Source: a virus
Lineage: Duplodnaviria; Caudoviricetes
Direction: 5' to 3' (one strand)
Length of the DNA: 64,000 nucleotides
Virus record (IMG/VR): IMGVR_UViG_3300042507_004106
Within the stretch, counting starts at the first letter, position 1, and each line of letters begins with the position of its first letter. The notes under the pieces are model-generated. The model worked only from the letters and a program-made list of their open reading frames with translations, had not been told where the DNA came from and did not search any database. The position numbers and the translations under genes were made by a program. Shown here piece by piece: positions 45,501-63,825 of the stretch.

Positions 45501-48500
45501 TTCAGTGTCTGCAGTGCTAATATAACCAGACTTTTCTAAGTTATAGAACAACTTAGAGGGAAGTTCATTGTTATAGTTTATAGTCAACGATGCTGTTGAA
45601 GATAAACCTACTGTCCCAACTCCAGAAACAGAGAAAGAATTCGTAGATCCAATAGAAACAAATTCATCTTTAAAAGTTTGATCGTAGAATACTTTAAACT
45701 TATATCCAGATAAAGAACTATCTGATAAGTCAAATACTACATTATTATTAGCAACTACATTTAATGGTGGGTTAATTGGAGATAATTGATGAGTAGCTGC
45801 TGGAGCATTTGTTATATCAATAAAGAGTGGATCCGTAGTTGTAGCATCTACTAAAGTATCACATAACTTAATGTTATCGTTATCAACTTTATAAACATAG
45901 TAGAATCCAGTTGTTAATCCAGTAGCAGGTGCTGTACTTGAATATATGACCTTATCACCAGTATTAAAGATATGATTTTGTATTGTAATTTGATTTGTTA
46001 CCGTATTGATTCCCGCAGAATCAAATGATACTGGATTAATTATGATTCTTTCTCTAACGGAATCATATTTTACCTTGATTGATGTTGAAGTTCCAATACC
46101 AACCGAAAGATTTGGTTTTACTTCCAAATCAACCTTGTCTCCAGATAGTAGACCATGTGAGGTAGAAATTGAAACAGTTGATTTAATGCTATCAATATCT
46201 CCTTTTATCTGCTCAAAATTAGACTGAATTGAATATTGATAATTATCATCACCATTACTTCTAAAGAATAGACCATTTGTTGAAGTGGTTAATCCAATTT
46301 GAGTAACAATTCCAATATGATCAACAGATTTTTTAATCACATATACTACTTGCTGATCTCCAGAACTTGGGAGATTAAATGTAGCACTTGTAGATGTATT
46401 AGATACTGAGATTGGTGAAGAGGATGATAATTTTCTAAAAATTACTTGCTGATTATTTGCAAATGGATGATTGGGTAGGTAAATGGATTGTGTTGGGATT
46501 GAGGTTGGAATATTGCGGGTTCCAATTACAAAAGTGGTTGAGAATCCAACTCCAGAAGTGGTTCCTAAACCAACAGATTGTTTGGGGTTGAAGTAATAGG
46601 TGTCATTTACTTTAGAATCAAAATAAGAAACTGATTTATTAATTGTAAATGTATTTGGTATATAATTTACCGTTGTCGTTGCAGTATGTGCAGATCCAGT
46701 AGACTCTCTCACAACTCTCAGAACACTATCTTCATTGAAGATGTTGAGAACTGATAAAGTCTCTCCTTCAATCTTTATAGAACTTCCTATGGAAATATTG
46801 TCAGGAATTCTATTAACGTAAATATCCGTAACTACTCCAGCAACACTGTATACTGGGATATCTTTTGATAGTGAAGAAGTATAAGATGTAACTCCTATTT
46901 GAGTAAAACCATTTAATGGAGAAAGTTCTGTTGAGAAACCAGAAACTGTTACATAATCCAAGTTATTCAATGAATGATATGGGTCAACTGTTACTTTTAC
47001 TTGTGCCCCACTATCCCAAGTGAAAACAACATCATCGTAAGAAGTTACATTAGTGTTAATGTTATCAATTCTCTTACCAGTTAACTCAGAAATTTGAGCA
47101 GAAAGTCCAGATCCTCCAGTATTGTCTTGGTTGAATTCTACAGAATCTCCAACCTTATATTCATCACCTTCATTGATTATTTCATATGAAGTAATTGAAC
47201 CAGAAGATACTGACTCCACAATTGTTAGTTGATCAATAACATCATTAGATTCAATAATGAAATCATTACCAGCAAATTCTTCATTTACTTTGTATGGTAG
47301 TGTATTTCTAATCAGACCAGATTCATTGAAATCAAAAGTTTGATCTAGATTACTATTCTCCGAGATAAACTTAGATCTGTACTTATTACCAATAAAATAT
47401 GGGAATTGTCCAACAACATCTCCGTAGATATCCTCTTCAGAAGTAGCAAAGTATGCATAAACACCATTTGGAAACTCTGGGGTTACACAATATCTTCCAT
47501 TATATTCATCAAGATCTCCAGTATTAGTAAATACATAGTCTTCTACGAAGAATCCAGGATCAAAACCATTTGGTCTATTTTGAACATTTGTTGTGTTCAA
47601 AGAATATCCAGATATTAATCTCTTAATTTCTGAGTTATCATCACTAGCATTAGAATATCCATAAGAACCATAAATTGGGTTTCCATCATATGCCCATCCA
47701 ATAATTGGTGAGTGTTGAACTCCACTATCCGCAAATTCATCTTGAATCTTTTGTGAATATCCAGATACCGTATACTGTAAATTATTCAGTGATGAAATAA
47801 GGATATCATCAGCAAGTTCTCTTATATCATCTTCTTGTCCATATAAAACATTCTTATTAACAGTTAATGATCTTACTTGTGCATTTAAAACTTCATTTCT
47901 TCCAGATGATTCAACAACAAGTGTAGTATTGGATGCACCATATCCCGTACCTGGATTTATGATAACAACATCTACAAGTTTATTATTAACAATGACTGGT
48001 TTAATAGTAGCACCAGTACCACTACCATAGATCTTAATTTCTGGTGTGGAATAATATTCTGACCCACTATATTGGACATTAACATCTTCGATGCGTCCAT
48101 TTACAACAACAGGTTTTAACTGAGCGTTTTTACCATTCTTAATAAGAATTTTTGGTTTCTTGTGTAGATTTAAAATATTTGATCCATAATCAGATCCATT
48201 TTCATAAACATAAACGTCAACGATACTACCCTTTACAATTGGAGTAGATACAATTTGACCAACGAATTGTGTGCTTCCAATACCAGCAGTGCTGTATTGA
48301 ACCGATAGGGAAATTTCTGGATAACTGAAAATTTGATAACCCGATCCAGTGCTTTCAAACTTTACGTAATTCTTTCTCAAGTAGTTTGACGTGTTTGTTC
48401 CTGCTACTCCAGCATTTGCAATTTTAAAAGTATCATTATCTACTTTGAGAATGTAGTATTGATTTGATGTAGATACTCCAGAAATAGCAACAGGAACAGT

Positions 48501-51425
48501 TGTACCAACTCCAACAGTAGTAGAGTATATAACTAGATCTCCATCAGAAAAACCATGATTCTTAAAGTATACTGTGCTATTAACAGTTGAAATTCCAGAT
48601 GGACTTACCAGAAGTCTTCTGTTCTCATATCCACTTCCTGGATTAGTAACCTTAATCTGAGTTAAGGTCTTTTTAAGATCAGTTTCAAATTTGTGAATAC
48701 CAGAATTTCCTATGGTGGTGAATCCTACAGTATTAATTCCTGCTAGGTAATCAGATACAGTTTGATAAATCTGGATAGTGGTATCACTAATATATTTTGT
48801 AAAATATGTGGCTCCCTTTTTCAGGGTAATACCACTATCAGCATCAGATCCATTAAATGTACCTATACCTATTGATTGGTTGTTTACTGGATTATATGTT
48901 ATTTGTTGCCCATTAACAAGACCATGAGCCTTTGTAAAGGTTATAGTTTCGCTGGAAGTATCTAAACCGCCACCAAATCCAATCTGTCTAGCATCAAATT
49001 CTATTGCTCTTTTTCTTGTTTCAATTACTGGTTCAAATGTTGCACCCTTACCATTTCCACCTGTAACTGCAATTGATACGATTGCATCAACATCAAAGTC
49101 TTGGGGATTTACATAAACCTTCTCAAAGGATCCTCTAACAACAGGTTGGAGGAGAGCATTGCCTGAAGATGGTTCTAATAAAGGTGGGTTTATTACATCA
49201 AAATTTGTCCCACCATTTAAAACCTGAACCGATTCTAATGAACCGTAGTAAACCTTATCGTTTGTTTTATATCCACTAATTTCAACACCATTGACTAACA
49301 TTCCAACGAATGATACTGGTGTTGGATCTGAATCCCCATCCGCAATATTAACATTCAGTGGGAATTTTCTTAGAATCTTTTGTGGAGAGATAACCGATTC
49401 TTTTTGACTATTTAAAGTGAAATTATGAGTTCCTGATGTAAGAGGACCAAATTGAACATAATTATCAGACCCTATAAAGGATCTTGATATGTACAATCTA
49501 ATTTGACGCTTATCATTAATTACTTCGACATAATAAGTTCCCTCAGATAATCCTGAGATTGGAGTTTCTGATGGTTTGTAGTAGATCTCAGATCCTGTCT
49601 GGAAGGAAACTTTATCCAAAAAGTTCAGAATGGAATAATTTCCCGTTGTTACATCTTGACCAGAAACCGAAGATGCATTGTAACTGAATATTCCAATAGA
49701 AATCTGATAAGATGGAAGCGAGTTAGAGGCTACGTAAATGTATTCATCACCTTCAGTATAAACATTCTGAACATCACTGGTTAGATCAGAATACTCTAAA
49801 GGTACCTGAGAAGAAGTTGCAACTGATAATTTTCTTCTAATATCGTAATTGAAACTTTGATTGAGTGTGAATGTTCCGTTTGTTGTGATTTGTTTACCAT
49901 TAATTTGAGTTACAACCAAATCGGAAGCATCTAGAGTCTCACTATTTCTACTTAAGATATCAATAACATCTCCAACTTTCAAGCTGGACTTATCCACATC
50001 ACTCTTTAAAGTGACTTGTGATATGGTTCCAGATGCAAAAGTAGAAATTTGATATCTTGAACTGGTGTTATATGTCCAACTATTAGCAAAAATTTCTTTA
50101 TATGTTGGATTGTCTACTGGGTTCTCAATAATTTCACCCAAATTTTTAACTGAAATTTCTTCACCAGCATCAATTGGTGATGATTGTGATATAGAGTTAA
50201 AGTCTGATAGAACTCCAGTGATCCTTAACTCAACAAGATTTTCTGAATTGCCGTCTTCAAATCCATAATAAGTTTCATCCGAACGAATATTTTCTGTAGG
50301 ATTTATTTGCTCAACGATACCCGAGCATCCAAAAAATTGATTTATGCTCTTGCTAGTGTATTCAATTACATTATTTCCAGAATAAAGTTTTCCCGATTGT
50401 GGGAATCCAATAGTGGAATCTACAGTAATAACTTCGGATCCAATTGGAGCACGCTGAACTACTTTGGTACTTCCAGTAATTCCAAATTTTCCAGTAATGG
50501 TTGGGAAAGAATCATCATAACCAATGAAGAGTAAAAGTTTATAATAAACTTTATCTCCTCTCCTGATGACTTCTACTTCAGATACGGATGCGCTTGTATT
50601 AGCATCTGTACTTTTCTTAATCGTTTGTCCTGCTAGTAGAACAGGATTACCTGAAATTCTTTCTGCAACAACTACTAATCTTCTTACATAAGTTGCTGAA
50701 GATGGTTTAATCAGTGAATTTTCAAGATTAATAATCTTTGGAGTTTCTCCAAATAAAACATTGAATAGAATTCTAAATGATTCTTCAGTACCTTTTGATT
50801 GATATAATGTTCTTGCTTCCTTTACAAAATTTCCTACGTTTAACTCAGGAGCAAAATCTAAGTTTTCTAGTCCTGGTGTAAATGTATACTTGAGATTATT
50901 ATAAAACTCTTTTAAAAATAATGAACTTAAATTAATTACTGAAGTATTTGAATTGTGCTCCGAACCATTAGAAGTTTCAAAAATCAGATCGCCAACATAG
51001 TTTGATGTATTGTTGGGAGTAATACCTGCATTATATGTTGTAATTCCACTAAATCCACGGATACAACCAGTAAAAGTATTTGTTGTAATACCAGTGTATG
51101 TGATGATCTCATCATCAATCTTTAACAAACCGTAGGACTGTGGAAATCCTTTTGTACTGGATACTTGAATCGTTGCAGAAGATGCTGAAATATCCGAACT
51201 TAAAGTAGTTGATCCAACTACAACCTCCGGAGTCAGATTGTCTAATTTGATATATTCGTCTAAATTCTCAGCAATATCTACAGGACCGCCTTGGTATTCC
51301 TGAGAAATGTAATATTGCTTTAAAAATTCGGCAGCCTTTGGACTTTCATCTAATATAAATTCTGGAAGTTGACTATCAATAACTTGCTGTATTTTTACCC
51401 TAGATTCAAAACCAGTTTGTATCAT
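39510..51425 (-). CDS. gp7: Giant baseplate wedge initiator (gp7-like)
   Basis: 3971 aa between gp6 and gp8; YQSKGTEESFRILFNVLFG, HSPIIGWAYDGNPIYG, DNDYYQNLSYSVRS, HPIGLKNF. Confidence 0.85.
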   Translation of the reverse strand: MIQTGFESRVKIQQVIDSQLPEFILDESPKAAEFLKQYYISQEYQGGPVDIAENLDEYIKLDNLTPEVVVGSTTLSSDISASSATIQVSSTKGFPQSYGLLKIDDEIITYTGITTNTFTGCIRGFSGITTYNAGITPNNTSNYVGDLIFETSNGSEHNSNTSVINLSSLFLKEFYNNLKYTFTPGLENLDFAPELNVGNFVKEARTLYQSKGTEESFRILFNVLFGETPKIINLENSLIKPSSATYVRRLVVVAERISGNPVLLAGQTIKKSTDANTSASVSEVEVIRRGDKVYYKLLLFIGYDDSFPTITGKFGITGSTKVVQRAPIGSEVITVDSTIGFPQSGKLYSGNNVIEYTSKSINQFFGCSGIVEQINPTENIRSDETYYGFEDGNSENLVELRITGVLSDFNSISQSSPIDAGEEISVKNLGEIIENPVDNPTYKEIFANSWTYNTSSRYQISTFASGTISQVTLKSDVDKSSLKVGDVIDILSRNSETLDASDLVVTQINGKQITTNGTFTLNQSFNYDIRRKLSVATSSQVPLEYSDLTSDVQNVYTEGDEYIYVASNSLPSYQISIGIFSYNASSVSGQDVTTGNYSILNFLDKVSFQTGSEIYYKPSETPISGLSEGTYYVEVINDKRQIRLYISRSFIGSDNYVQFGPLTSGTHNFTLNSQKESVISPQKILRKFPLNVNIADGDSDPTPVSFVGMLVNGVEISGYKTNDKVYYGSLESVQVLNGGTNFDVINPPLLEPSSGNALLQPVVRGSFEKVYVNPQDFDVDAIVSIAVTGGNGKGATFEPVIETRKRAIEFDARQIGFGGGLDTSSETITFTKAHGLVNGQQITYNPVNNQSIGIGTFNGSDADSGITLKKGATYFTKYISDTTIQIYQTVSDYLAGINTVGFTTIGNSGIHKFETDLKKTLTQIKVTNPGSGYENRRLLVSPSGISTVNSTVYFKNHGFSDGDLVIYSTTVGVGTTVPVAISGVSTSNQYYILKVDNDTFKIANAGVAGTNTSNYLRKNYVKFESTGSGYQIFSYPEISLSVQYSTAGIGSTQFVGQIVSTPIVKGSIVDVYVYENGSDYGSNILNLHKKPKILIKNGKNAQLKPVVVNGRIEDVNVQYSGSEYYSTPEIKIYGSGTGATIKPVIVNNKLVDVVIINPGTGYGASNTTLVVESSGRNEVLNAQVRSLTVNKNVLYGQEDDIRELADDILISSLNNLQYTVSGYSQKIQDEFADSGVQHSPIIGWAYDGNPIYGSYGYSNASDDNSEIKRLISGYSLNTTNVQNRPNGFDPGFFVEDYVFTNTGDLDEYNGRYCVTPEFPNGVYAYFATSEEDIYGDVVGQFPYFIGNKYRSKFISENSNLDQTFDFNESGLIRNTLPYKVNEEFAGNDFIIESNDVIDQLTIVESVSSGSITSYEIINEGDEYKVGDSVEFNQDNTGGSGLSAQISELTGKRIDNINTNVTSYDDVVFTWDSGAQVKVTVDPYHSLNNLDYVTVSGFSTELSPLNGFTQIGVTSYTSSLSKDIPVYSVAGVVTDIYVNRIPDNISIGSSIKIEGETLSVLNIFNEDSVLRVVRESTGSAHTATTTVNYIPNTFTINKSVSYFDSKVNDTYYFNPKQSVGLGTTSGVGFSTTFVIGTRNIPTSIPTQSIYLPNHPFANNQQVIFRKLSSSSPISVSNTSTSATFNLPSSGDQQVVYVIKKSVDHIGIVTQIGLTTSTNGLFFRSNGDDNYQYSIQSNFEQIKGDIDSIKSTVSISTSHGLLSGDKVDLEVKPNLSVGIGTSTSIKVKYDSVRERIIINPVSFDSAGINTVTNQITIQNHIFNTGDKVIYSSTAPATGLTTGFYYVYKVDNDNIKLCDTLVDATTTDPLFIDITNAPAATHQLSPINPPLNVVANNNVVFDLSDSSLSGYKFKVFYDQTFKDEFVSIGSTNSFSVSGVGTVGLSSTASLTINYNNELPSKLFYNLEKSGYISTADTEVTNYSQIAFVDSVYNGSYNISGVGETTFVVSLQQLPENLNYNYSDCDVIEYRTTSSTASGGISKIRSISSGIGFKKIPSFVGSDSANGKGAYVIAKSDSVGKVNQTRIVNEGFEYPSDKTLRPTATIPSLLTIKNSNTISSIEITNNGRNYTSAPNLIIVDSETGSKIDSGLLVANLSGTSVISVDIEQEPKGLPSTPVTIKAINNTNGIGIQTITGSSSGIITCYLVTPLSGFGTEPFSVGDKIYVEGVQKYGTDGDGFNSEDYGYEFFTVSVYENAGTLLPRKLEYNLAGLSTNVGIAKTVQDSSSFIINSNNYPQFEVTQTYSPFIIGEQLSVRNETGFEIQDLRVTQDDQNYIKVSGSYKIASGQVVRGVQSGNIATIDNVGTNTGNFSVGYGSTQEIGWSDNTGKLDEDSQVTPDNDYYQNLSYSVRSNQEWVDIVSPVNSILHPIGLKNFADTTITQSVGSGSTNVTESTTILYDIIDESRVDTINNIDLVVDIDTVGSTSRFLKFSNIKLADYVECRTNRVLSIDDISSQFSSSEGDVQTFANILPINKSTKYNNYLVQITSLDYSQVQFTELVVINDDEDVYTLEKASISNLEGKVGDVEGYVDQTGEFNLKFTPYDPYNTDYKIKILSDNFSTFFSGIGTYSVGFVDLIGSNANVSSGITTSLISKNISSFETLYSNIHVLDTITNEMNYVELYVDHDGTNTNLTEFYFDSNSEYTGNFIGSFGASISGGVLTLNYTNTSSNNVIVRSKNIGFNTTASGIGTYRFKKTGQIDGFERTVNYVSDFSTVSSASTIISLDTTLFTSVKSVVKVSIGETSALHQIMMISDGSDTYTVQYPFLSVGSTSGIGSFGGNISGSTASLVFYPDQNLSGSFEILSFNEKFYKIADEINQPNNLEYASIINSLHTANYYGLNSENLNRLNFDLTYQGYPIFMKEFDPKDSTILNAATGEFSIDNHFFNTGEELIYRPTSTFLGVGATSVGIGSTLNSVGVVTDRLPTTVFAYKVNNDTFKLSTRREYAFAGICVTFTSLGEGNAHQLEMAKKNEKSIISLDNIIQYPISYALISKTINNGSPIGSASSIFALSGISSININDIIKVDNEYMKVNSVGLGTTTSGPISFTGSVPLVQVQRGFVGSSATTHADSSTVDVYRGSFNISGNEIFFVSPPQGIIEDQLGPDVDNLAEARSTFNGRVFLRKDYSTNQLFDDISENFTGVGQTYTLSTQGISTVGFGTTGGNGIVLINGVFQTPTTSNNLSNNYSIIENTNVGISSIVFSGITSTNGSIIISESDVNMNQLPRGGVIVSLGSTPGVGYAPLVGASVTAIVGAGGSIVAIGIGSTGNYGSGYRNPVSIAITEFGHTGTAATISATVGAGGTLAFNIVGGGSGYTTPTINISAPNYENLPVIGVSRAGIGTTTETGVGLLLNVEVGASSTVGVGSTLFEVTGFSISRSGYGFKKGDVITPVGLVTDFGLPSPVSEFQLTILDTFTDSFGAWQFGELDYIDSVKDYQDGSRTRFPLFYNSQLLSFEKNSSDPDSQLIDFDALLVIFINGILQEPKTAYQFTGGTSFTFTEAPKPEDNISIFFYRGSSSDSVYRDVNETLKIGDDVRVYSNNSLLQSTVTQDTRVITDISSSDKIQTNLYTLQGIDTVNQKPISWTKQKVDKVIDGGIVSKARDSIEPQIYPTAKIIGNFSSSDSLVYVDDAQFFNYENVSPGNIQFDAFIVSGAADPVSAAVTAIVSSAGTISSLVINNAGSGYVGSAVTVSISAPPSVNVGVGITATASISIVNGSLSTVSITNPGFGYTTTIIPQVLVPLSDPVYENVSNITTVQGFSGDITGIQTTSGIGTDLAIKFTLDPTLSPFTNLSTGQPIYIFNTFVGQGVTSIINNDSNVVGVGTSFLDNVYHISAFNSSVGIITCNVASTSTLVGIATTGPSVGKFSWGKLSGFSRSSSPISLTVSSYRVDSGLSTFPTIQRRGYGLRNIGPIEKTL

Positions 51426-51426
51426 A

Positions 51427-53349
51427 TTACGACCTCGTTAATTCTCCGTTTGAATAGCTTGACCTGTAAGAATCTTGTGTAAACACAACTCCAGATATAT
51501 CGTCACCAGAAGCAATTACGTCCTTAACCATATTTATTGTGCTTTTTGAAACATCAAATGAGACATAAAGATTCTTCAATCCAATGATATCGTTTGATTC
51601 TGGGAATGCCTGTATTTCAATAATATCGTCTTGAATATCGGTTGAAGTGATATTCAGTGTACCTAATAATATCTCTCCAGTTTCATAATTAACTGTTCCT
51701 GCAGATTGAACAATAACGGATGTTTTAATTGTAGAATCTGTGCCTACTCCTGAAAGAACAGTATAGGGTTTAACAATAGAAATAATTCCAGTCTTAAGAT
51801 CGGAGTTTGGAGTATCTGTGAGATAAACGGTATCGGATTCTCCAAAAATCTTGAATCCAGTTGATTTGATATTATATCCTGCAGGATTTACATGGAATCT
51901 GTTTCCATAGCATATTTCATACTGAGCAAGTTGATTCAGTTTTGCTTTCAGATCTCTTCTAATTCTAACTTTTGTAATGTTAGATGTGATCGCACTATCT
52001 GTAGAATCAATTACTTGTAAAATCTTACTGTACTTAAATCTACCACCAAATGCATTTAGATTTGGTGAACCTGCATAAGTTGTGAGGGAATTTACAACTC
52101 TGTTCTTAAGATCTTCTACAGTTGAAACTTGTGAATAGTTGTAGTAGATTGATGAATCTATTTCAACATATAAAACTTGAAGATCTACGATTTGTGGTTC
52201 AATTCCCGCTACCGTATATTGCTTAAGTTTATTTTGAATTTGTTGCTTATTAAAGTCCGATACATAAGTACCATTTTTTGGTTTAATACTGATCAAGACT
52301 TTTCCATATTGTGGTGGATCCAAATCTTCACCACCAACAACTGCTACTGATTCTGTATCTGGGTATATTTTAGATTTTAATATTGCCTCATAATCTCTTC
52401 CAGTTACAGCTCTATATTGAGATGAATAGATTCTTGGTGCGAAATATTTTACAGAGTCTATACTTTCAATATCAGATCCATTTTGGGATCTTTGATTTGT
52501 TGTAACTGTAATTGTGTTTGTTGGAATAATTGTATTCCCACTAGCATCCTTTAAAGATCCTGCGAAGGAGAAACCACTCACGCCGTTGCCTTCTTTTCCA
52601 TCAGTCACAATATAGGTAACTGTAATTACGGACCCATTTTCAAGTTTCTTACCAAAAAATCCATCACCAAAAAGAATCTGATATTTCTCATCCTGCACTT
52701 CTTGAAGCAGATAGATCTCTGAAGTTGAATTAATATCAAAGATATTATCTGCTAGAGAATATTCTCTACCTAAACCAGTATCGCTGGTACCCTTCACATA
52801 AACAACAATTGTTGATGAATCGATGAATGAATTATCTAAAATAAATTTCTGATCAAGAGAACCATCAACGACAAATTGCTTACGAAGGAACGTTCCTTCG
52901 CTAATTGTGAGGTTGCTAAACGTTGCAGTTCCATTGACTACTGATGAAGATATATTCTCCGAAACTGAGAAAGTATATGATGTTCCTTCTGCACTACCAG
53001 TGCATACCAGACCCGCCTGTAAGGTTAGTGTTGGGGTTGTTGAAGAAGTACTAACCTGAAAGGAAACAACTGCCTTAGAGGCGGTTCTGGAACGTGGTAC
53101 ATATCCAATATTTCTTGCTAGAGATACAACATTCTCTCTTACTGTTGCAGAATCTAAGAAAGATTCATTTACAACTAAGTTAGAGTTGAACGCTGTGATA
53201 TATGTGTTATATGCTAACGTATCAATCAGAACTGAGAAATTGGAACCCTCAAAGTCAAAATCTGTAAAGGAAGAATTTGCCCTAAGGTAATCCTTAATTG
53301 AAGTTCTGATCTGATCAAAGTCTAAATTTGAAAACTTAGTAAAAGGCAT
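51427..53349 (-). CDS. gp6: Baseplate wedge subunit gp6
   Basis: LDFDQIRTSIKDYL, FLDSATVRENVVSLARNIGYVPRS, QYRAVTGRDY. Confidence 0.95.
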   Translation of the reverse strand: MPFTKFSNLDFDQIRTSIKDYLRANSSFTDFDFEGSNFSVLIDTLAYNTYITAFNSNLVVNESFLDSATVRENVVSLARNIGYVPRSRTASKAVVSFQVSTSSTTPTLTLQAGLVCTGSAEGTSYTFSVSENISSSVVNGTATFSNLTISEGTFLRKQFVVDGSLDQKFILDNSFIDSSTIVVYVKGTSDTGLGREYSLADNIFDINSTSEIYLLQEVQDEKYQILFGDGFFGKKLENGSVITVTYIVTDGKEGNGVSGFSFAGSLKDASGNTIIPTNTITVTTNQRSQNGSDIESIDSVKYFAPRIYSSQYRAVTGRDYEAILKSKIYPDTESVAVVGGEDLDPPQYGKVLISIKPKNGTYVSDFNKQQIQNKLKQYTVAGIEPQIVDLQVLYVEIDSSIYYNYSQVSTVEDLKNRVVNSLTTYAGSPNLNAFGGRFKYSKILQVIDSTDSAITSNITKVRIRRDLKAKLNQLAQYEICYGNRFHVNPAGYNIKSTGFKIFGESDTVYLTDTPNSDLKTGIISIVKPYTVLSGVGTDSTIKTSVIVQSAGTVNYETGEILLGTLNITSTDIQDDIIEIQAFPESNDIIGLKNLYVSFDVSKSTINMVKDVIASGDDISGVVFTQDSYRSSYSNGELTRS

Positions 53350-55372: not shown

Positions 55373-56130
55373 CAAATAATCCTTGATTTTTCGTGACCGA
55401 CTCTGATGCGAGGATCGCACCAAATTTCAAATCCTGCTTCTTTTGCATCCAAACAGAACGATACATCTTCTCCACACATATCCTGAACTTGACCAGACTC
55501 AAAGACTTGCATCTTAGGAGCAAACCATGGATACTTCATCTCCGAATGTTCAAATACACCGTTTTTAATCAGAACCCAACCAAAACCAGTGTAGTCAACT
55601 GTGAAAGGCTTACGACGCTTTGAGATGCTATCAACGGTTTCATGATTCATCACTCCACCATTACCACGGAAATCATCTTCATCCAACCAGTGCGCCACTG
55701 AGGTTGTGTGACCGTCCTCTGTAGCATACCAACCAGCAGCGATATCCTTTTCCATTAGAACTAATTGCCAGAATTTTTCTGTATTGAAAACAATATCAGA
55801 ATCAATCCAAAGTTGCCAATCATATTTAAGTTTTCCATCCCAGGGAATCTGATCAGGTCCACGCAGTACATTCGCACCTAAACATTTGCATCGAGCAAAG
55901 TTTACCATCGATGAATAGTCCTGCGAGATCTGAATGCTTGCCCCCGATTGCACAAGGTCAAAACACAGTTGCACGAAGTTCTTTAAGTATGTGTAAGATA
56001 CACCTCTACCAGGAAGACAAAAAACAATTGACTTTCCTTTTACCATTTCTTTTGCCAGATCATAGTCCCATTCTTGTGTGGGTGATGCGACTACGGGCGA
56101 TTTTGCTTTTACTGTAAATCCTTTAGCCAT
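55372..56130 (-). CDS. GT-A fold (GT2-like) glycosyltransferase
   Basis: LWIDSDIVF (DxD), TGFGWVLIK, GEDVSFC, GHEK; own promoter TTGACT-N17-TATGAT at 56181-56153. Confidence 0.8.
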   Translation of the reverse strand: MAKGFTVKAKSPVVASPTQEWDYDLAKEMVKGKSIVFCLPGRGVSYTYLKNFVQLCFDLVQSGASIQISQDYSSMVNFARCKCLGANVLRGPDQIPWDGKLKYDWQLWIDSDIVFNTEKFWQLVLMEKDIAAGWYATEDGHTTSVAHWLDEDDFRGNGGVMNHETVDSISKRRKPFTVDYTGFGWVLIKNGVFEHSEMKYPWFAPKMQVFESGQVQDMCGEDVSFCLDAKEAGFEIWCDPRIRVGHEKSRII

Positions 56131-56181
56131 AAGATAAGTTGTTTACTTCAGTATCATACTCTATTATGTAGAAGAAGTCAA

Positions 56182-56352
56182 TCAGTCTCTTTCTGATAAA
56201 ACGACTTCGTTACCCTCTAAGGTAAACTTAACTTCTGTGTCTTCGTACCATGAAAGATCGTTTATGATCTGCTCAGGTATTACAAGGTAGTATTCACCGT
56301 TAATTGGATCGACTTGTATCGTCTCAAAAATATCTCCGGAATTTTTTTTCAT
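56182..56352 (-). CDS. AbrB/MazE-like small DNA-binding protein
   Basis: Manual translation MKKNSGDIFETIQVDPINGEYYLVIPEQIINDLSWYEDTEVKFTLEGNEVVLSERD. Confidence 0.6.
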   Translation of the reverse strand: MKKNSGDIFETIQVDPINGEYYLVIPEQIINDLSWYEDTEVKFTLEGNEVVLSERD

Positions 56353-56549
56353 TTCAGTATATGATTGAACCTTTTCTGCTATTATATATTCTCCGGGATT
56401 TTTTGAATAGAGAGATATTGAAAGGTCGATCTGGGTCGTTTATAGCTTATGGGGACCCATTCATTATAACACGGGGGCGGGGTAGGGGACCGCAACCCCC
56501 CACCCACTGCCGATCACGAACGAATAAGACTGCCCCCACGAACAGCGGG

Positions 56550-56720
56550 TCACCCCCGCCCCGCGAATGCCTCAGAGTACTGGGCGGCGATGGCGACGGC
56601 GGGCAGACCCCAGTGGATGTAGGCGGAGGGGCGGGAACCGTTCTTCAGTTGGTCGTGGCGGGAGATCCATTTGATCTGGCGGGTCTCCAGGTCAGAGCAC
56701 ATGCAGAGGGGGAAGCGCAT
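56550..56720 (-). CDS. Early small hypothetical protein
   Basis: Start MRFPLCMCSD after promoter TTGCGA-N17-TACAAT (56774-56746). Confidence 0.65.
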   Translation of the reverse strand: MRFPLCMCSDLETRQIKWISRHDQLKNGSRPSAYIHWGLPAVAIAAQYSEAFAGRG

Positions 56721-56790
56721 CGGTCTGGGGTGGTGAACTGAGAGAATTGTACAGCATCGGGGGGCGGATCGCAACCCACCCCCTCACGAA

Positions 56791-57051
56791 TCAGATGCCT
56801 GCCATTGCGGCGACCAGCCGATCACGCTTGCGGATCGCTTCGGGCAGGATGAACCACTCATCACGCTTGCCGTTGGCGTGGCAGGTGGCGGCGAGGATGC
56901 GCTCCTGCTCCATGTCCACCATCAGGGCATGGATGGTGCCCTTGTGGCGGCGGGGGTCAAGACCCATAGAGCGCACCAGGTCGGAGCAGGTCATGGGGCC
57001 ATCGTTGATCAGGTGAGTGCGGATGGCGGCGCAGATGATGGAGGTGAGCAT
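56791..57051 (-). CDS. Early winged-helix-like DNA-binding protein
   Basis: Start MLTSIICAAIRTHL; GPMTCSDLVRSMGL...TIHALMVDMEQERIL...EWFI; promoter TGC-TACAAT at 57078-57086. Confidence 0.6.
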   Translation of the reverse strand: MLTSIICAAIRTHLINDGPMTCSDLVRSMGLDPRRHKGTIHALMVDMEQERILAATCHANGKRDEWFILPEAIRKRDRLVAAMAGI

Positions 57052-57088
57052 GGTTCGGGGTCCTGTGAACTGAGAGTATTGTAGCAGG

Positions 57089-57256
57089 TCAAAAGGCGAC
57101 CTCATGATCCCAGTAGAGATGCCACAGGGCGGTCAGAGTCTCCCGCTCCCGCTGCTGACGGTAGTGTGCCCAGGACTCGTGCTCAAAGGGACGCAGGGCG
57201 GCAGCGCGGGCAGCGGCGCAGCGCATCGCGTTGTCGGCCCAGGTGTGGTTGGTCAT
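57089..57256 (-). CDS. Early small hypothetical protein
   Basis: MTNHTWADNAMR...; -10 TACAAT at 57283-57288. Confidence 0.6.
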   Translation of the reverse strand: MTNHTWADNAMRCAAARAAALRPFEHESWAHYRQQRERETLTALWHLYWDHEVAF

Positions 57257-57306
57257 CGGTGGGGGAGGTGTCGGTTGAGAGTATTGTAGCAGATCGGGGG
57301 GGGGGC

Positions 57307-57468
57307 TCACTGCCCGTTGGTGTAGTCTCCGATGATGACCCCGTTGCAGCGGACCTGAGCGTAACCGTACTCTTCAGAGAGGTCCAGGCACAGGAGCCAG
57401 GCGCGGTCGGCGTCGGTGGTGGTGTTCTCCCAAGGAGCGGAGGGGCAGAACACGTCGTAGCGGGTCAT
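57307..57468 (-). CDS. Early small hypothetical protein (53 aa)
   Basis: Manual translation MTRYDVFCPSAPWENTTTDADRAWLLCLDLSEEYGYAQVRCNGVIIGDYTNGQ; -10 TATACT at 57492-57497. Confidence 0.7.
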   Translation of the reverse strand: MTRYDVFCPSAPWENTTTDADRAWLLCLDLSEEYGYAQVRCNGVIIGDYTNGQ

Positions 57469-57536
57469 GAGAGGTTGTCTGAACTGAAGTCAGTATAGCG
57501 GGTCGGTGGGGGGCATCGCGGCCCCCAGTGTGCGGT

Positions 57537-57734
57537 TCAGGAATTGGGCCAGAGGGCGTTGGCGATCTTATCAGCAGCGCCCTGCAGGTTGTCGCGGACG
57601 ATCAGGCGGAGGATCTCAGCACCGTCAGGGGTGGCGTGCATCTGGCGGATCATGCTAGGGGTGAAGCAATCCCAGGTGATCACATCAGCAGTCTGCAGGA
57701 GTTGGGCGTCGGCGTTGGAGATGGTGTGAGTCAT
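57537..57734 (-). CDS. Early small hypothetical protein
   Basis: MTHTISNADAQLLQ...; -10 TACAAT at 57757-57762. Confidence 0.7.
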   Translation of the reverse strand: MTHTISNADAQLLQTADVITWDCFTPSMIRQMHATPDGAEILRLIVRDNLQGAADKIANALWPNS

Positions 57735-57767
57735 GGGGTTCGTTGCGGTTGAGAGTATTGTAGCAGA

Positions 57768-57989
57768 TCAGGCGTCCCGTGCTGCTAGGAGCAGGGCATG
57801 AAATTTGTGGAATTCGTGGGTCATGCCAGGGGAGAGAGTCGGGCGTCCCTTGCTGCCGTGAGTCGGAAGGTGGAAGGTCTGGGGGATGCTAGGATGGGTC
57901 ACCTTGTCGTGACTGCCCCCTGATTTGATGGTTGCTCCTGCCTTCAGGAACTGGCGGCGGGCGTCGCGTACCTTGATTGGGGATGCCAT
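57768..57989 (-). CDS. hicA: HicA-family (mRNA interferase-like) protein
   Basis: 73 aa from MASPIKVRDARRQFLKAGATIKSGGSHDKVTHPSIPQTFHLPTHG; GSH...HP...P.H pattern of HicA. Confidence 0.7.
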   Translation of the reverse strand: MASPIKVRDARRQFLKAGATIKSGGSHDKVTHPSIPQTFHLPTHGSKGRPTLSPGMTHEFHKFHALLLAARDA

Positions 57990-58002
57990 AGGAGGGTCGG
58001 GG

Positions 58003-58170
58003 TCAGTGGCGGTCGCTGATGTCCCACACGCCCCAGCCGCCGTTGGCGTGAGCGTCGCGGACTTCGATCGCCTGCTGCCTCTGGGCGCTGGTGTAGGTTG
58101 CCCAACCATCGCTGTTGAGGTCGTCGCCGTAGCAGGCATTCCAGATTAGGTTCGCTTCGGTCAGGGTCAT
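58003..58170 (-). CDS. Early small hypothetical protein (55 aa)
   Basis: Manual translation MTLTEANLIWNACYGDDLNSDGWATYTSAQRQQAIEVRDAHANGGWGVWDISDRH; -10 TATACT at 58194-58199. Confidence 0.7.
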   Translation of the reverse strand: MTLTEANLIWNACYGDDLNSDGWATYTSAQRQQAIEVRDAHANGGWGVWDISDRH

Positions 58171-58239
58171 GAGTCGTTTGCTTTGGTTCCCATAGTATAA
58201 GACCCCCAGCGGCGAACCGTGGGGGTCTGGTGGTCAGAT

Positions 58240-58407
58240 TCAGAACTGGATCGGATCGGCGGTCGGGGCGCTGATTGCCGCATAATGGGCGGCGCAGTCA
58301 GCGATGCCTGCCTGCTCAACGTCGCTGGTGATGGTATCCAGGATCTGCAGGATGCTGTCCCCGTTGCTACCTTGGCGGAGCAGGGACAGGGCAAGGTCGC
58401 GGGTCAT
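58240..58407 (-). CDS. Early small hypothetical protein (55 aa)
   Basis: Start MTRDLALSLLRQG; -10 TACAAT at 58460-58465. Confidence 0.65.
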   Translation of the reverse strand: MTRDLALSLLRQGSNGDSILQILDTITSDVEQAGIADCAAHYAAISAPTADPIQF

Positions 58408-58465
58408 TTGGAATTCGGGTAGAAAGGTTGGCGGAGTCTTTAGGGGCGCTGCCGTTCCCATTGTA

Positions 58466-58627
58466 TCAGCGTTCGAGTTGCGCCAGACTGCTAGGGGCGA
58501 TGTGAGAGGGAGAACCACAGGAGCGGTAGAAGTCTACCATGCGGTCTGCCTCCTCTTTACTGGTGAACCACTGCGACCGCCACTCACAAGCGTTGTAGGG
58601 GGTCTGGTAACGGACTTCGAAGCGCAT
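58466..58627 (-). CDS. Early small hypothetical protein (53 aa)
   Basis: Manual translation MRFEVRYQTPYNACEWRSQWFTSKEEADRMVDFYRSCGSPSHIAPSSLAQLER; -10 TAGAAT at 58653-58658. Confidence 0.7.
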   Translation of the reverse strand: MRFEVRYQTPYNACEWRSQWFTSKEEADRMVDFYRSCGSPSHIAPSSLAQLER

Positions 58628-58813
58628 GGGGTCGTTTGCTTGGTATGGAAGAATTCTACAGGGTCAGCGGGAGACGATATCGCCTGCGGTGTGCAGTGCG
58701 CTTGCCGTCACACTGCGGATCGGTTCCAGCGGACCCCAGAGAGTGTAAGCGACGCAACCCAGAACCAGCAGTTTAAACATCAGAAATTTGCGATGGGAAA
58801 GTGAGAATCAGAA

Positions 58814-59074
58814 TCAGAAATCAAACACGTCGCCGTTAATCTCAGCGCGGTTGATCTTAGGGTCGTTCCACTTCACACCATCGGGAGTTTCTTTGGTGCC
58901 GAACTCATAGAATGCCTCAAGCAGATCCTCATAGCAGCAGATATCATTCTCACGGATGAAGGTATAAATGCCCTCATCATTCTCAATCCAGAGCACAACA
59001 TTCCAGGTCTCATAATTCGTCCAACCGTTATAGGTGCGGTCGGTGAGGTTGGTCTGGTAGGTGGTGGCGGGCAT
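58814..59074 (-). CDS. Early hypothetical protein with YNGWTNYETW motif
   Basis: Start MPATTYQTNL; -10 TATACT at 59097-59102. Confidence 0.75.
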   Translation of the reverse strand: MPATTYQTNLTDRTYNGWTNYETWNVVLWIENDEGIYTFIRENDICCYEDLLEAFYEFGTKETPDGVKWNDPKINRAEINGDVFDF

Positions 59075-59141
59075 TGGGTTCGTTTGAACTGAAGTTAGTA
59101 TAGGGGCAGGGAGGGGGGTCTGTGCCCCCCTGGTGGACAGT

Positions 59142-59894
59142 TCAGTAAGCGTCACAGCGGGCGTTGACTTCCTGCAGAAGTTTACCTACCTTGTCCTGCT
59201 GCAGTTTGATGACAACTTGACTGTTACGGTTTGCCTTACTGGCGCCCAGAAATGCATTGATGCCGTTGTTACTGGTCACCCGCAAACGCAGACCGCAATC
59301 ATACACATTCCCTTCAGCATCTACAAAGTACACCATGCGGGAAGATTTGCCGTTGCCTTTGAGAACAACAGAGTAACCCTTCTGAATGTAACCGACTGCA
59401 GGATGTTGCTCTGCAGCGAACACATAAAGTTCAGAAGTCTTGGTGTCGTTGATCACCAGATCAAACCCAGCATTGTGCTCAATCAGACCACGCTGCAGAA
59501 TCTCAATCACTTGTGCAGAGGTGAGAGAATCCAGGGAAAGTTCGCAGAGAGCATTGAAACTGTCGCGAATCTTCAGCACAAATTCTTCATCAGAACGCAG
59601 CGATTCGGGCATCTGACGGAGTTCTTTCATGTTAGAAAGAAAGTGGTCAAAGGTATCACCCAGCACGTCATTGTAGGCGCTGGTGTTGAACCAATCAAAC
59701 GAACCGTTGCTGATGCCTTCCTTACGCTTGATGCTGATCTTCTTATCACCAGCGACGGCATCTTCCTTACACTTAGTGCCGCCACGCTTCTCTACAGTTT
59801 CGCTGTAGATTTGCTTTTCATTCAGGATTTGAACGGTGAGGTCCTCATTCTTCACACCACCGTGATGAACAGAACCGTCAGTTTTGTAGGTCAT
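59142..59894 (-). CDS. Putative PD-(D/E)xK restriction-endonuclease-like nuclease
   Basis: Start MTYKTDG; GGTKCKEDAVAGDKKISIK; promoter TTGACC-N17-TATTCT (60017-59989). Confidence 0.55.
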   Translation of the reverse strand: MTYKTDGSVHHGGVKNEDLTVQILNEKQIYSETVEKRGGTKCKEDAVAGDKKISIKRKEGISNGSFDWFNTSAYNDVLGDTFDHFLSNMKELRQMPESLRSDEEFVLKIRDSFNALCELSLDSLTSAQVIEILQRGLIEHNAGFDLVINDTKTSELYVFAAEQHPAVGYIQKGYSVVLKGNGKSSRMVYFVDAEGNVYDCGLRLRVTSNNGINAFLGASKANRNSQVVIKLQQDKVGKLLQEVNARCDAY

Positions 59895-60039
59895 TTGTTT
59901 ACCGTGATCGACACGGGCGAATAGAGTAGGTTGGGCAGTCCTCACCTCTGCCCTTGGGGGGTCCTCCTTCCTCCCCCCTGGTGAACATAGAATACCCTGG
60001 ATTGGGGGGCAGGTCAACCCCCTGACCCATTAGCGTCGC

Positions 60040-60933
60040 TTATGCGACCTGAAACCGTCCGCTGTTGAAATTATGATAAGCGAACACCTCACGATTCACC
60101 AGTTTGAACATACCAAACTCATTGGTCATCACATAACCTTCGGCATCAATACGGTTGCCATTGATGTATGCTGCAGGTCCGTCATTGCGGCAGATAAACA
60201 GGCAGTCATCTTTGATGCTCTTTACCAATGCCCACAAACGAATCAGGTTAGCGTCACAATCGAAATCTTCTGCGACGATCTGATCACCCGAACGGATGCA
60301 AGCGTTGATCTGCTGTTTGATCTTTGCTGCTTCCTTCTCACTCACGAACTGAGCAGTAGTAGACATTTGACGGGCAAAATCTACAACCTCTTTTACATCA
60401 GCGAACGACTCTTGATTGTGCAGAATGTAAGCATCAGGTTTGATGAACTTCACCGTTTCAGTATCATTCCAGACGGCACGATCAGGCATTGCGACTGCAT
60501 CACGAAGGTCGCTCTCAGCATAATAGCAAGTGTGAGGAGCGATGATAATCTCTTGAGAAACTACCTCACCAAACTTGTAAGTGATCGTATTGGGGCAATA
60601 CTCATCACTACCGCCAAAACCAATAAAATCACCTTGAATGATAGCATTTGCGCGAGGCAGATAATCAAAGCAAGAATGCAGAATACGCGCAACTTCACCC
60701 TGATAGAATGCATCAATCTCTTCATGATTGTGTGCAATACGAATCTTTTTCTTGTTAAAGACTGCCTTGGTTCCTACAAAGAATTCACCACAGGCAGGGT
60801 CGATGCCCCATACAATGGCGGGAGCACCGTCGATCTTAACGGACAGGGAACCAGGATTCACGAACCAATCCAGAACGGACAGGTCGCCCGTGAGGATGGT
60901 ATCTTCGGGGTGTTCGAGGTGGGTGTTCTTCAT
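60040..60933 (-). CDS. MKNTHLEHPED-family protein with ligase-like nucleotidyltransferase motifs
   Basis: SVKIDGAP (motif I KxDG), IQGDFI, AEGYVM, FKLV. Confidence 0.7.
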   Translation of the reverse strand: MKNTHLEHPEDTILTGDLSVLDWFVNPGSLSVKIDGAPAIVWGIDPACGEFFVGTKAVFNKKKIRIAHNHEEIDAFYQGEVARILHSCFDYLPRANAIIQGDFIGFGGSDEYCPNTITYKFGEVVSQEIIIAPHTCYYAESDLRDAVAMPDRAVWNDTETVKFIKPDAYILHNQESFADVKEVVDFARQMSTTAQFVSEKEAAKIKQQINACIRSGDQIVAEDFDCDANLIRLWALVKSIKDDCLFICRNDGPAAYINGNRIDAEGYVMTNEFGMFKLVNREVFAYHNFNSGRFQVA

Positions 60934-60939
60934 GCTCTT

Positions 60940-61035
60940 AAGATACCAGGGATTCAGGGGCAGCACAAGCGGTAGGGTGCCACCTTACGAACTGGCACAG
61001 GGTGACCCTCTACGGGGTCTGTGGCGTCTTATACT
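60940..61035. promoter_or_regulatory. Symmetric bidirectional early promoter around the 24-bp palindrome
   Basis: Motif GGTGCCA-N10-TGGCACA at 60976-60999; minus -10 TATCTT (60940-60945) and plus -10 TATACT (61030-61035), each exactly 30 nt away. Confidence 0.65.
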
Positions 61036-61125: not shown

Positions 61126-61158
61126 AAAAAAGGGAGGCAATCGCCCCCCGATTCTTTA
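61126..61158. terminator. Intrinsic terminator hairpin, possibly bidirectional
   Basis: Minus strand CGGGGGGCGATTGCCTCCC-T7; short TTCTTT on the plus side. Confidence 0.65.
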
Positions 61159-61503
61159 TGCGAACATGAACCCATCTTGGAATTCGTATTCATTGTAGAC
61201 AGGAGAAGTTCCTGCCTGCCCGATGAACTTGTGGACGAACCAATTGAAGTTGCGTTGAAACACACATTCGCCCTTGATTCCATGCTCTTGAAGAATAGCA
61301 TTCAGGCGCGATTTGGTGGTCACAGACTGATAACCACCGTCAAAGATTTGCACGAAGTCATCACCAATGGTGGCGATGTGATTGCCGTGCAGGAACACTT
61401 TAGACTCTTGAGTTTCAGGGTCAAAGGTAACCTCAGTGTTGCCAGACTTCCAGTTGATGGAGTCACGAATGGCGGCGTTCATCTGCTGTTCGATCTTACG
61501 CAT
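61156..61503 (-). CDS. Early hypothetical protein
   Basis: Start MRKIEQQMNAAIR; promoter TTGCAA-N17-CATACT (61557-61529). Confidence 0.75.
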   Translation of the reverse strand: MRKIEQQMNAAIRDSINWKSGNTEVTFDPETQESKVFLHGNHIATIGDDFVQIFDGGYQSVTTKSRLNAILQEHGIKGECVFQRNFNWFVHKFIGQAGTSPVYNEYEFQDGFMFA

Positions 61504-61592
61504 TGGGGGTTTCCCTCTCAACAAATACAGTATGGATCAGATCGGGGGCAATTGCAAGGGGTCTTGTGCCACCTTGTGGACTGTCACATGGT

Positions 61593-63456: not shown

Positions 63457-63825
63457 ATGTTTAGACTAGATTTTATAATGAGATCTCTACGAGAATTAAA
63501 TCCACTTCTAGAAGGATATTGTGCGACTTATGATGGTAAGGTAATATCTAGAAAAAATAAAGTACTTAAGCAATTCAGAAGGAACAAACAGTCTAGGTGT
63601 CCCTATTTAAGTATCAGTGTGTGGGATAAGACCTCTGGTTTTGCAAGACAATTCTTTGTACATCGACTTGTAGCGTATCAATATTGTGATTTAAATCTTG
63701 AAGATATAACAGGTCTTGTGGTTAATCATATCGATGGTAACCCTCATAATAACCATGCAAAAAACTTAGAGTGGGTTACGCAAAAAGAAAACGTACTTAA
63801 GTATCACAGTAACGTTATAACATAA
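63457..63825 (+). CDS. HNH homing endonuclease (HNH_3-type); the only confident plus-strand gene
   Basis: FFVHRLVA...VVNHIDGNPHNNHAKNLEWVTQKEN. Confidence 0.9.
   Translation: MFRLDFIMRSLRELNPLLEGYCATYDGKVISRKNKVLKQFRRNKQSRCPYLSISVWDKTSGFARQFFVHRLVAYQYCDLNLEDITGLVVNHIDGNPHNNHAKNLEWVTQKENVLKYHSNVIT

Follow-up and report, generated by a model that had tools for sequence, protein, structure and literature searches.

What is the function of a phage protein family that is labelled 'unknown function' both as DUF6267 (PF19782) in Pfam and as phrog_455? This question is raised by a gene that belongs to an array of small minus-strand ORFs within a 64-kb window, which is the whole stretch of viral DNA that was analysed (Table 1). 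Its product scores 258.7 bits with DUF6267, for which the cut-off is 27 (E 1.5e-76), is a full-length phrog_455 protein (E 3.3e-114) and has a homologue in Prochlorococcus phage P-SSM2, PSSM2_075, which is annotated as 'T4-GC 71' at the matching locus. No Pfam match besides DUF6267 was obtained for the protein, and a search of NCBIfam gave no ligase assignment. The original prediction was that the protein is a ligase-type nucleotidyltransferase and, more specifically, an early RNA repair or end-modifying enzyme that counters host ribotoxins. The window itself is assigned from its gene content to a T4-like cyanophage (Kyanoviridae), of which it is a part, because it carries the genes for a gp6 baseplate protein and Kyano_Gp96 and because the best cultured homologues of the protein come from Synechococcus phage S-SRM01 (67% identity) and P-SSM2 (50%). 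The genomes of these two phages served as proxies for that of the window phage in the searches for other ligases, for Pnkp and for the partner gene described below.

Table 1. Positions of the features in the 64-kb window.
Feature	Position	Strand	Details
gp6 baseplate protein gene	51427-53349
HicA-like ORF	57768-58139		Pfam 20.4 bits (cut-off 27), sub-threshold
Downstream ORF	59142-60017		291 aa
DUF6267 / T4-GC 71 / phrog_455 gene	60040..60933	-	297 aa, stop-free translation
Putative sigma-70-like promoter	60940..60968	-	TTGTGC (60968-60963), 17-nt spacer, TATCTT (60945-60940)
Inverted repeat	60977..60998	.	GTGCCA-N10-TGGCAC, just upstream of the putative -35 box
Intrinsic-terminator-like hairpin and T-run	61132..61149	-	directly after the Kyano_Gp96 gene
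Kyano_Gp96 gene	61156-61524		upstream neighbour of the DUF6267 gene

An in-frame GTG at 60966 offers an alternative, longer reading of the ORF. The ATG at 60933 is likely the start codon of the gene, because the homologues share the N-terminal sequence M-x-N-x-H-L-E-H and because the upstream GTG lies inside the putative -35 box. The putative promoter to which this box belongs was read by eye and is absent from the list that a consensus scan returned at its threshold. Its -10 box is separated from the ATG by about 6-7 nt only, and the mRNA may therefore be leaderless or nearly so. Since a terminator-like hairpin follows the Kyano_Gp96 gene, the DUF6267 gene would form a separate transcription unit. 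The downstream ORF has no match in Pfam, PHROG or PDB and is unrelated to the conserved neighbours of DUF6267 in other phages.

The four motifs named in the original prediction could all be located in the order given there, with KIDG at residue 33, QGDF at 100, EGYV at 265 and FKLV at 276, and further motifs are present at residues 5 (HLEHPED, N-terminal) and 54 (GTK). Their conservation was examined in an alignment of 35 representatives (A1), which are 28-57% identical to the window protein. E265, G266 and K277 are invariant in all 35 sequences, and at least 90% of them share K33, D35, G36, Q100, D102, V268, V279 and R281; the sole clear exception to the conservation of K33, D35 and G36 is a protein whose N-terminal part fails to align. 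Invariance or conservation of at least 90% is also seen for H5, H8, E10 and D11 of an N-terminal HxEHxED motif, for F52, T55, K56, F59 and K61 in the place of motif Ia (FVGTKSVFNK), for N115 and Y119, for H134 and T135 at the position of motif IIIa, for the helix residues N210, R214 and K241, and for F284, N288 and F289 near the C-terminus. The residues of the ligase-type motifs are therefore among the most strongly constrained positions of the family. We assign K33 to motif I, GTK54-56 to a Ia-like motif, QGD100-102 to motif III, PHT133-135 to a IIIa-like motif, E265-G266 to motif IV and K277/R281 to motif V. Deviations from the canonical forms are the presence of D in place of E in motif III and of one Lys plus Arg in motif V.

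Sequence comparison with known ligases gave no significant result. Neither phmmer nor a profile search (hmmsearch) against the PDB found a ligase for DUF6267. With hhalign, alignment A1 scored below 1% probability against T4 Rnl2 or Rnl1 alone and 2% against a 7-sequence RNA-ligase alignment (0.3-2% overall), and nothing was found against a DNA-ligase alignment. Both ligase alignments were built from 30 PF09414 loci, of which only seven RNA-ligase sequences were left because many of these loci encode LigD-type DNA ligases. The path of the non-significant hhalign alignment is colinear with the RNA ligases in motifs I, Ia, III and IV, pairing KxDG with EKxxG, FVGTKS with the motif Ia region of Rnl2, QGDFIG with FGEFAG and EGYV with EGYV, and the best local match to Rnl1 places EGYV..FKLV on E227-GYV..FK240-IK. 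The protein atlas gave a lead (0.78) from the window protein to PF09414. The failure of HMMER and hhalign to reach significance explains the label 'unknown function', and the case for superfamily membership has therefore to be made from the predicted fold and the motifs.

The AlphaFold2 model calculated on A1 is confident (pLDDT 94.1, pTM 0.88) and places each of the ligase-type motifs on a beta strand. The first of these strands (residues 29-33) ends at K33 and is followed by a turn, and the others comprise residues 98-106 and 129-138 as well as a hairpin (266-271/274-279). Three helices (residues 174-191, 199-215 and 228-246) form an insertion (174-246) between motifs IIIa and IV, and the chain ends 18 residues past motif V without an OB domain. 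The window protein is thus modelled as a bare nucleotidyltransferase domain with a conserved three-helix insertion in place of an OB or other C-terminal domain.

When the model was compared with 48,161 PDB chains by VIA-align, ranks 1 to 15 were all occupied by nucleotidyltransferase domains of ligases, with 146-189 residues aligned and Z scores of 5.2-8.3, of which those below 8 are middling by the tool's own warning. The best match is the Naegleria RNA ligase (PDB ID: 5cot) with Z 8.3 over 178 residues and an rmsd of 4.0, followed by T4 Rnl1 (Z 6.8), T4 Rnl2 (6.3), T. brucei REL1 (6.2), Trl1 (6.1), the putative ATP-dependent DNA ligase of Aquifex (PDB ID: 3qwu; 6.0), Rnl3 (6.0) and other DNA ligases (5.1-5.8). 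The argument for the fold is drawn from the membership of all fifteen top matches in one superfamily and from the nearly full coverage of the domain, not from single Z scores. Foldseek, which had been suggested as a check along with the original prediction, answered in part: most of its PDB matches are ligases, with capping enzymes among the weaker ones, but all are weak (E > 0.03, none at E <= 1e-3) and the ranking is clear only by VIA-align. In BFVD, the matches outside the DUF6267 family are mostly annotated as RNA ligases, with a capping enzyme in addition. In the structurally aligned ranges, K33 falls exactly on K35 of T4 Rnl2, within 4 residues of K99 of T4 Rnl1 and within 1-4 residues of the catalytic lysines of NgrRnl and REL1, which we take to be K170 and K87, respectively. 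A lysine at the position of motif I, conserved motifs and a model with ligases only among its fifteen best matches bear out the ligase-type nucleotidyltransferase of the original prediction. On the basis of the predicted fold and the conservation of the motifs, we conclude that DUF6267 very probably adopts the fold of ligases and capping enzymes, and that the gene product appears to be a lysine-nucleotidyltransferase that has diverged far from the rest of its superfamily.

The same observations bear on the possibility that DUF6267 is a catalytically dead protein of ligase fold with a structural or regulatory role, or that the motifs resemble those of ligases by chance. Such an explanation would agree with the non-significant outcome of all sequence-based homology tests and with the deviations in motifs III and V. 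However, dead enzymes usually lose their catalytic residues, whereas the invariant or nearly invariant residues in A1, despite identities of 28-57%, include exactly the motif positions K33, D35, G36, Q100, D102, E265, G266 and K277, and the confident model finds ligases in all fifteen top ranks. We consider this explanation highly improbable, and DUF6267 is probably competent for catalysis.

Comparison with individual ligases shows where the family stands within the superfamily. Ligases of the Rnl5 type (NgrRnl, 5cot; the Deinococcus DraRnl family) provide the best structural match and share with DUF6267 the same core, the order of the motif I Lys and motifs III, IV and V, and the lack of a C-terminal OB domain. 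In contrast, identity to NgrRnl is about 14% with no detectable sequence homology, and DUF6267 differs in a helical insertion of 70-150 residues between motifs IIIa and IV and in the invariant N-terminal HxEHxED. The NgrRnl structure reportedly contains an N-terminal OB-like module, which DUF6267 lacks. T4 Rnl1 (gp63) shares the fold and EGYV..FK(L/I)(V/K), and T4 Rnl2 (gp24.1) shares the fold, the pattern h-x-G-(D/E)-F-x-G-x-G and the superposition of K33 on K35, but the C-terminal domains by which these enzymes bind tRNA or duplexes are missing from DUF6267. The DNA ligases of the T4 gp30/PF01068 type have the superfamily fold in common with DUF6267, and their niche, empty in cyanomyophages, fits the replication module as the usual location of DUF6267; unlike them, DUF6267 lacks an OB domain, a DNA-binding domain and a latch, and its motif I is without the Arg of KxDGxR. 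Together with the helical insertion, the lack of an OB or C-terminal domain and the N-terminal HxEHxED, a partner of the HIGH superfamily of adenylyltransferases completes what the models present as a distinct architecture.

The RNA-ligase flavour of these matches and motifs keeps alive the reading in which DUF6267 is an RNA-repair ligase, an early enzyme that, like T4 Rnl1, would reseal tRNA or mRNA after cleavage by ribotoxins of the host (anticodon nucleases or toxin RNases). RNA ligases (Rnl5, Rnl1, Rnl2, REL1, Trl1 and Rnl3) are the top structural matches and stand above DNA ligases. The motifs are in the style of RNA ligases: motif I reads KIDGAP and thereby misses the Arg of KxDGxR, motif III (QGDFIGFGG) resembles FGEFAGPG of T4 Rnl2, and motifs IV-V resemble EGYV..FKIK of T4 Rnl1. 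In the window, the gene has a putative promoter of its own among small early-type genes. An RNA-directed enzyme, as originally proposed, is therefore still to be reckoned with on account of its closest structural relatives and of this promoter, but the part of the proposal concerning ribotoxins is not supported by the distribution and the context of the family, as described below.

DUF6267 is a large family, for which at least 7,748 clusters at 90% identity were counted among 8,000 candidates scored; at 50% identity, 1,141 representatives remain. It was found in 465-471 phage records, nearly all of cyanophages, and from these sequence records DUF6267 is judged to be carried by nearly all T4-like cyanophages; the other carriers are phages of Pelagibacter, Methylophilales, Stenotrophomonas, Vibrio and Pseudoalteromonas. 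Almost all annotations among the records viewed read 'hypothetical protein', and our literature search found no named mention or function for DUF6267 and no prediction of a cyanophage ligase. All 14 'genome' loci look like phage contigs within MAGs or assemblies. One of them, labelled 'Nonlabens xiamenensis' (L017), was considered as evidence of a phage of Flavobacterium or of a copy in a cellular genome and was rejected, its partner protein being 99.7% identical to that of cyanophage P-TIM40.

The gene is located in the replication/recombination module in S-RIM2, P-SSM4, P-HM1, S-PM2, S-SZBM1, pelagiphage HTVC008M and methylophage Melnitz. The usual order is gp43, uvsX, (2OG oxygenase), gp41, mazG, a small hypothetical, a hypothetical of about 350-480 aa, DUF6267 and a 'cytidyltransferase', and the triplet of hypothetical, DUF6267 and cytidyltransferase is kept in Stenotrophomonas phage DLP6. 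Upstream of DUF6267, the conserved neighbour (about 380 aa) gave a weak lead in the protein atlas to restriction-endonuclease-like families. In the window, P-SSM2 and S-SRM01, DUF6267 is unlinked from both the replication module and the partner.

The position in the replication module is of interest with respect to the ligases that these phages carry. Homologues of g30 and rnh have reportedly not been found in cyanomyoviruses, and cyanophage replication has been described as proceeding without DNA ligase and RNase H, for which host enzymes were assumed to substitute (Clokie, Millard and Mann 2010, PMC2984593). Consistent with this, our profile search for PF01068 and PF01653 gave no match in P-SSM2, S-SRM01, S-RIM2, P-HM1, HTVC008M and Melnitz. 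The RNA-ligase profiles PF09414 and PF09511, for which T4 served as the positive control, gave no match in P-SSM2 and S-SRM01, the two genomes searched. DUF6267 is a candidate for a distant g30 homologue. We reject a strict replacement of gp30 because DLP6 carries a gp30-type PF01068 ligase together with the DUF6267 cassette; the family is therefore more than a mere stand-in for gp30.

The 'cytidyltransferase' (T4-GC 190) forms one orthologous family across the phages with DUF6267 (35-45% identity) and occurs in 561 phage records, in which all cyanophage groups are included. Its association with DUF6267 extends to fusion: DUF6267 and PF01467 are joined in both orders in P0272, P0274, P0276, P0280, P0281 and P0284, the phrog_455 profile spans both domains, and the DUF6267 model is matched by an S-PM2 protein of 591 aa that BFVD lists as 'Cytidyltransferase-like domain-containing protein'. 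The partner gene was not found within the 64-kb window and is located elsewhere in the genomes of S-SRM01 and P-SSM2; the pair has therefore been separated in this lineage. Alignment of the partner reveals a HIGH-type motif (TFGRFNPPHAGH), which reads GRFNPPHAGH, and a SxSxxR motif. The AlphaFold2 model, with a pLDDT of 70.6 for the whole chain and of about 87 for its core (residues 38-222), matches the fold of PPAT and of NaMN/NMN adenylyltransferases in Foldseek (E about 1e-5). The partner shares with these enzymes the fold and both motifs, and differs from them in its variable extra domains (188 to > 1000 aa) and in its fusion with, or position next to, a protein of ligase fold; our literature search found no description of this combination. 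Its matches to the NMNAT models of NCBIfam are all sub-threshold, and some members have been named 'nicotinic acid mononucleotide adenylyltransferase' by JGI pipelines. In recent cyanophage papers, the protein is treated as an auxiliary metabolic gene product of unclear function or as TagD or cell-wall-related, and it was detected at low abundance in one virion proteome.

With context and partner at hand, the anti-ribotoxin reading can be weighed. The cuts made by ribotoxins leave 5'-OH and 2',3'-cyclic phosphate termini that must be healed before sealing by an ATP-dependent ligase is possible. Pnkp-type end healing (PF08645, PF13671) gave no match over cut-off in the related cyanophages S-SRM01, P-SSM2, S-RIM2 and P-HM1, while the T4 Pnkp control scored 83 bits; the partner of DUF6267 is a HIGH-superfamily adenylyltransferase, in contrast to the Pnkp of T4-type tRNA repair. 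A healing activity could, on the other hand, be hidden in the extra domains of the partner. The conserved context consists of the replication module and an adenylyltransferase and not of RNA-repair genes, and near-universal retention in cyanomyophages better fits a core function than an accessory counter-defence. A HicA-like RNase in the same array had been brought forward in support of the ribotoxin idea; the ORF in question is sub-threshold, lies about 2 kb from the DUF6267 gene in a GC-rich island of heavily overlapping frames (63% GC for the ORF compared to 34-35% for structural genes) and is not a conserved neighbour of DUF6267 genes. The lack of Pnkp, the replication-module context and the near-universal retention make the anti-ribotoxin reading less likely than that of a replication or repair ligase, and we regard RNA repair as unlikely.

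The partner also brings in another reading, in which DUF6267 would form a covalent intermediate and transfer AMP without joining strands. Together with its partner, such an enzyme would make or use an adenylylated small molecule (a NAD-like dinucleotide or ADP-X), or it would cap or adenylylate the 5' end of a nucleic acid or a protein. The recurrent fusion or adjacency with a HIGH-superfamily adenylyltransferase is in line with such a role: to our knowledge, all solved relatives of the partner catalyse ATP + phospho-X -> ADP-X + PPi with phosphorylated small molecules as substrates. The weak NMNAT-family matches and the JGI names of the partner point in the same direction, as do the capping enzymes, which share the fold and appear among the weaker structural matches of DUF6267, the lack of an OB or other known polynucleotide-binding domain in its model and its coexistence with a true DNA ligase in DLP6. 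Against this, the top structural relatives are all polynucleotide ligases with capping enzymes ranked lower, no enzyme acting on small molecules is known to us among the lysine-nucleotidyltransferases, and the replication-module context fits a nucleic-acid substrate. A transferase of this kind therefore appears unlikely.

The best reading of the models and contexts is that DUF6267 represents a new, divergent family of polynucleotide ligases working with a HIGH adenylyltransferase. A role in replication and repair is suggested because the pair sits in the replication/recombination module of most T4-like cyanophages. We give roughly even chances to the proposal that DUF6267, coupled with the adenylyltransferase, acts as a polynucleotide ligase in DNA replication, recombination or repair in phages without homologues of gp30, LigA, Rnl1 and Rnl2.

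From the observed motifs, conservation, contexts and fusions and from the predicted fold, we infer how such a ligase could adenylylate itself and join ends, on which substrate, and with what help from the partner. An enzyme-Lys-AMP intermediate would arise when K33 attacks ATP or another adenylyl donor related to it, with the nucleotide and metal presumably held by D35/G36, Q100/D102, H134 and E265 and the phosphates by K277/R281. The AMP would then be passed to a 5'-phosphate end, and attack by a 3'-OH would seal the break. The partner, adjacent or fused, may act together with the DUF6267 protein in this reaction. Acting on NMN, its chemistry would yield NAD+, whereas on a 5'-phosphorylated strand it would yield the App-intermediate of ligation; by analogy with its relatives, either product is plausible beside a ligase.

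Extending this proposal, DUF6267 and the HIGH adenylyltransferase might constitute an unrecognised two-enzyme ligation system and supply T4-like cyanophages, pelagiphages and methylophages with their 'missing' nick-sealing ligase. In such a system, the partner would either regenerate an adenylyl donor (NAD+-like, from NMN + ATP) or make AppN ends for sealing. We put this forward tentatively, as somewhat improbable in its full form. The missing RNase H or flap-nuclease step might, in turn, be supplied by the upstream neighbour of about 380 aa.

These results provide a testable function for Pfam DUF6267 and phrog_455, and also for the puzzling 'cytidyltransferase' of cyanophages. If the reading as a ligase is true, the enzyme may be useful as a reagent, and the coupling of an OB-less ligase with a HIGH-superfamily adenylyltransferase would add a new architecture to the end-joining enzymes. 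T4-like cyanophages are among the most abundant marine viruses, and the presence of a gene for a predicted ligase fold in their replication module makes the assumption that host enzymes complete cyanophage replication directly testable.

The early-type array at 56-63 kb of the window, to which the ligase-like gene belongs, is unlike the late genes in its base composition. Structural genes of the window have a GC content of 33-36% with a GC3 of about 0.2, and the ligase-like gene is at 46% GC. A GC-rich island (53-57% GC) is located within this array, where the HicA-like ORF reaches 63% GC. Because numerous ORFs on both strands of the island overlap, gene calls in this region are uncertain. The HNH_3 homing-endonuclease-like gene (E 1.3e-7) is low in GC (33%) and runs opposite to the early array around it. 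The giant ORF immediately downstream of the gp6 baseplate gene presumably encodes a baseplate or fibre structural protein.

Features of the window and of related DUF6267-bearing loci
Feature	Sequence	Coordinates	Strand	Details
Giant ORF	window	39510-51425	-	3,971 aa
GC-rich island	window	56000-60000
HicA-like ORF	window	57768-58139
ORF directly 3' of the ligase-like gene	window	59142-60017	-	250-291 aa
Putative promoter of the ligase-like gene	window	60940-60968	-	-10 box TATCTT; ATG at 60933
HNH_3-like gene	window	63457-63825	+
Conserved upstream neighbour of DUF6267	L022	4829-5977		~350-480 aa
Same	L008	4666-5814		as above
Same	L009	4750-5922		as above

In the putative promoter of the ligase-like gene, the -10 box ends 6 nt before the ATG, a spacing which suggests that the transcript may be leaderless. 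The ORF directly 3' of the gene has no match in Pfam, PHROG or PDB and shows no similarity to the conserved DUF6267 neighbours of other phages. Among the latter, the conserved upstream neighbour has no Pfam match and is placed by the protein atlas close to the restriction-endonuclease families HinP1I, HaeIII and MspI (0.93-0.94). This proximity only hints at a possible nuclease function.

The partner adenylyltransferase of cyanophage S-SZBM1, annotated as 'cytidylyltransferase', has been detected by LC-MS at low abundance in purified virions, as has the 457-aa product of the gene downstream of it (PMC9146016). The DUF6267 protein of S-SZBM1 could not be found in the text or main tables of that proteome study (PMC9146016).

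DUF6267-containing or adjoining genes of metaG-MbCM1 (NC_019443.1) and S-PM2 (NC_006820.1) are labelled 'NrdB ribonucleotide reductase', which looks like a mis-annotation. The DUF6267 gene is apparently present in two pieces (192 aa and 390 aa) in the S-PM2 record, whereas in BFVD a 591-aa S-PM2 'Cytidyltransferase-like domain-containing protein' matches the DUF6267 model.

All 14 DUF6267 loci filed under bacterial or archaeal genomes (L010-L023) lie on short or cyanophage-like contigs. The MAGs that contain these contigs carry labels such as Pirellulales, Clavibacter, Poseidoniales and Rickettsiales, and the contigs are therefore probably mis-binned phage sequences. One of them, L017 (NZ_RMVE01000006.1; 188,235 bp), comes from the bacterial isolate assembly 'Nonlabens xiamenensis strain 1Q3'. 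Its partner protein is 99.7% identical to that of cyanophage P-TIM40, its length is in the same size class as the P-TIM40 genome (188,632 bp) and the gp43-uvsX-gp41-mazG replication module order is present on it. From this identity, size and synteny, L017 appears to be the genome of cyanophage P-TIM40, and its presence within the Nonlabens assembly looks like contamination.
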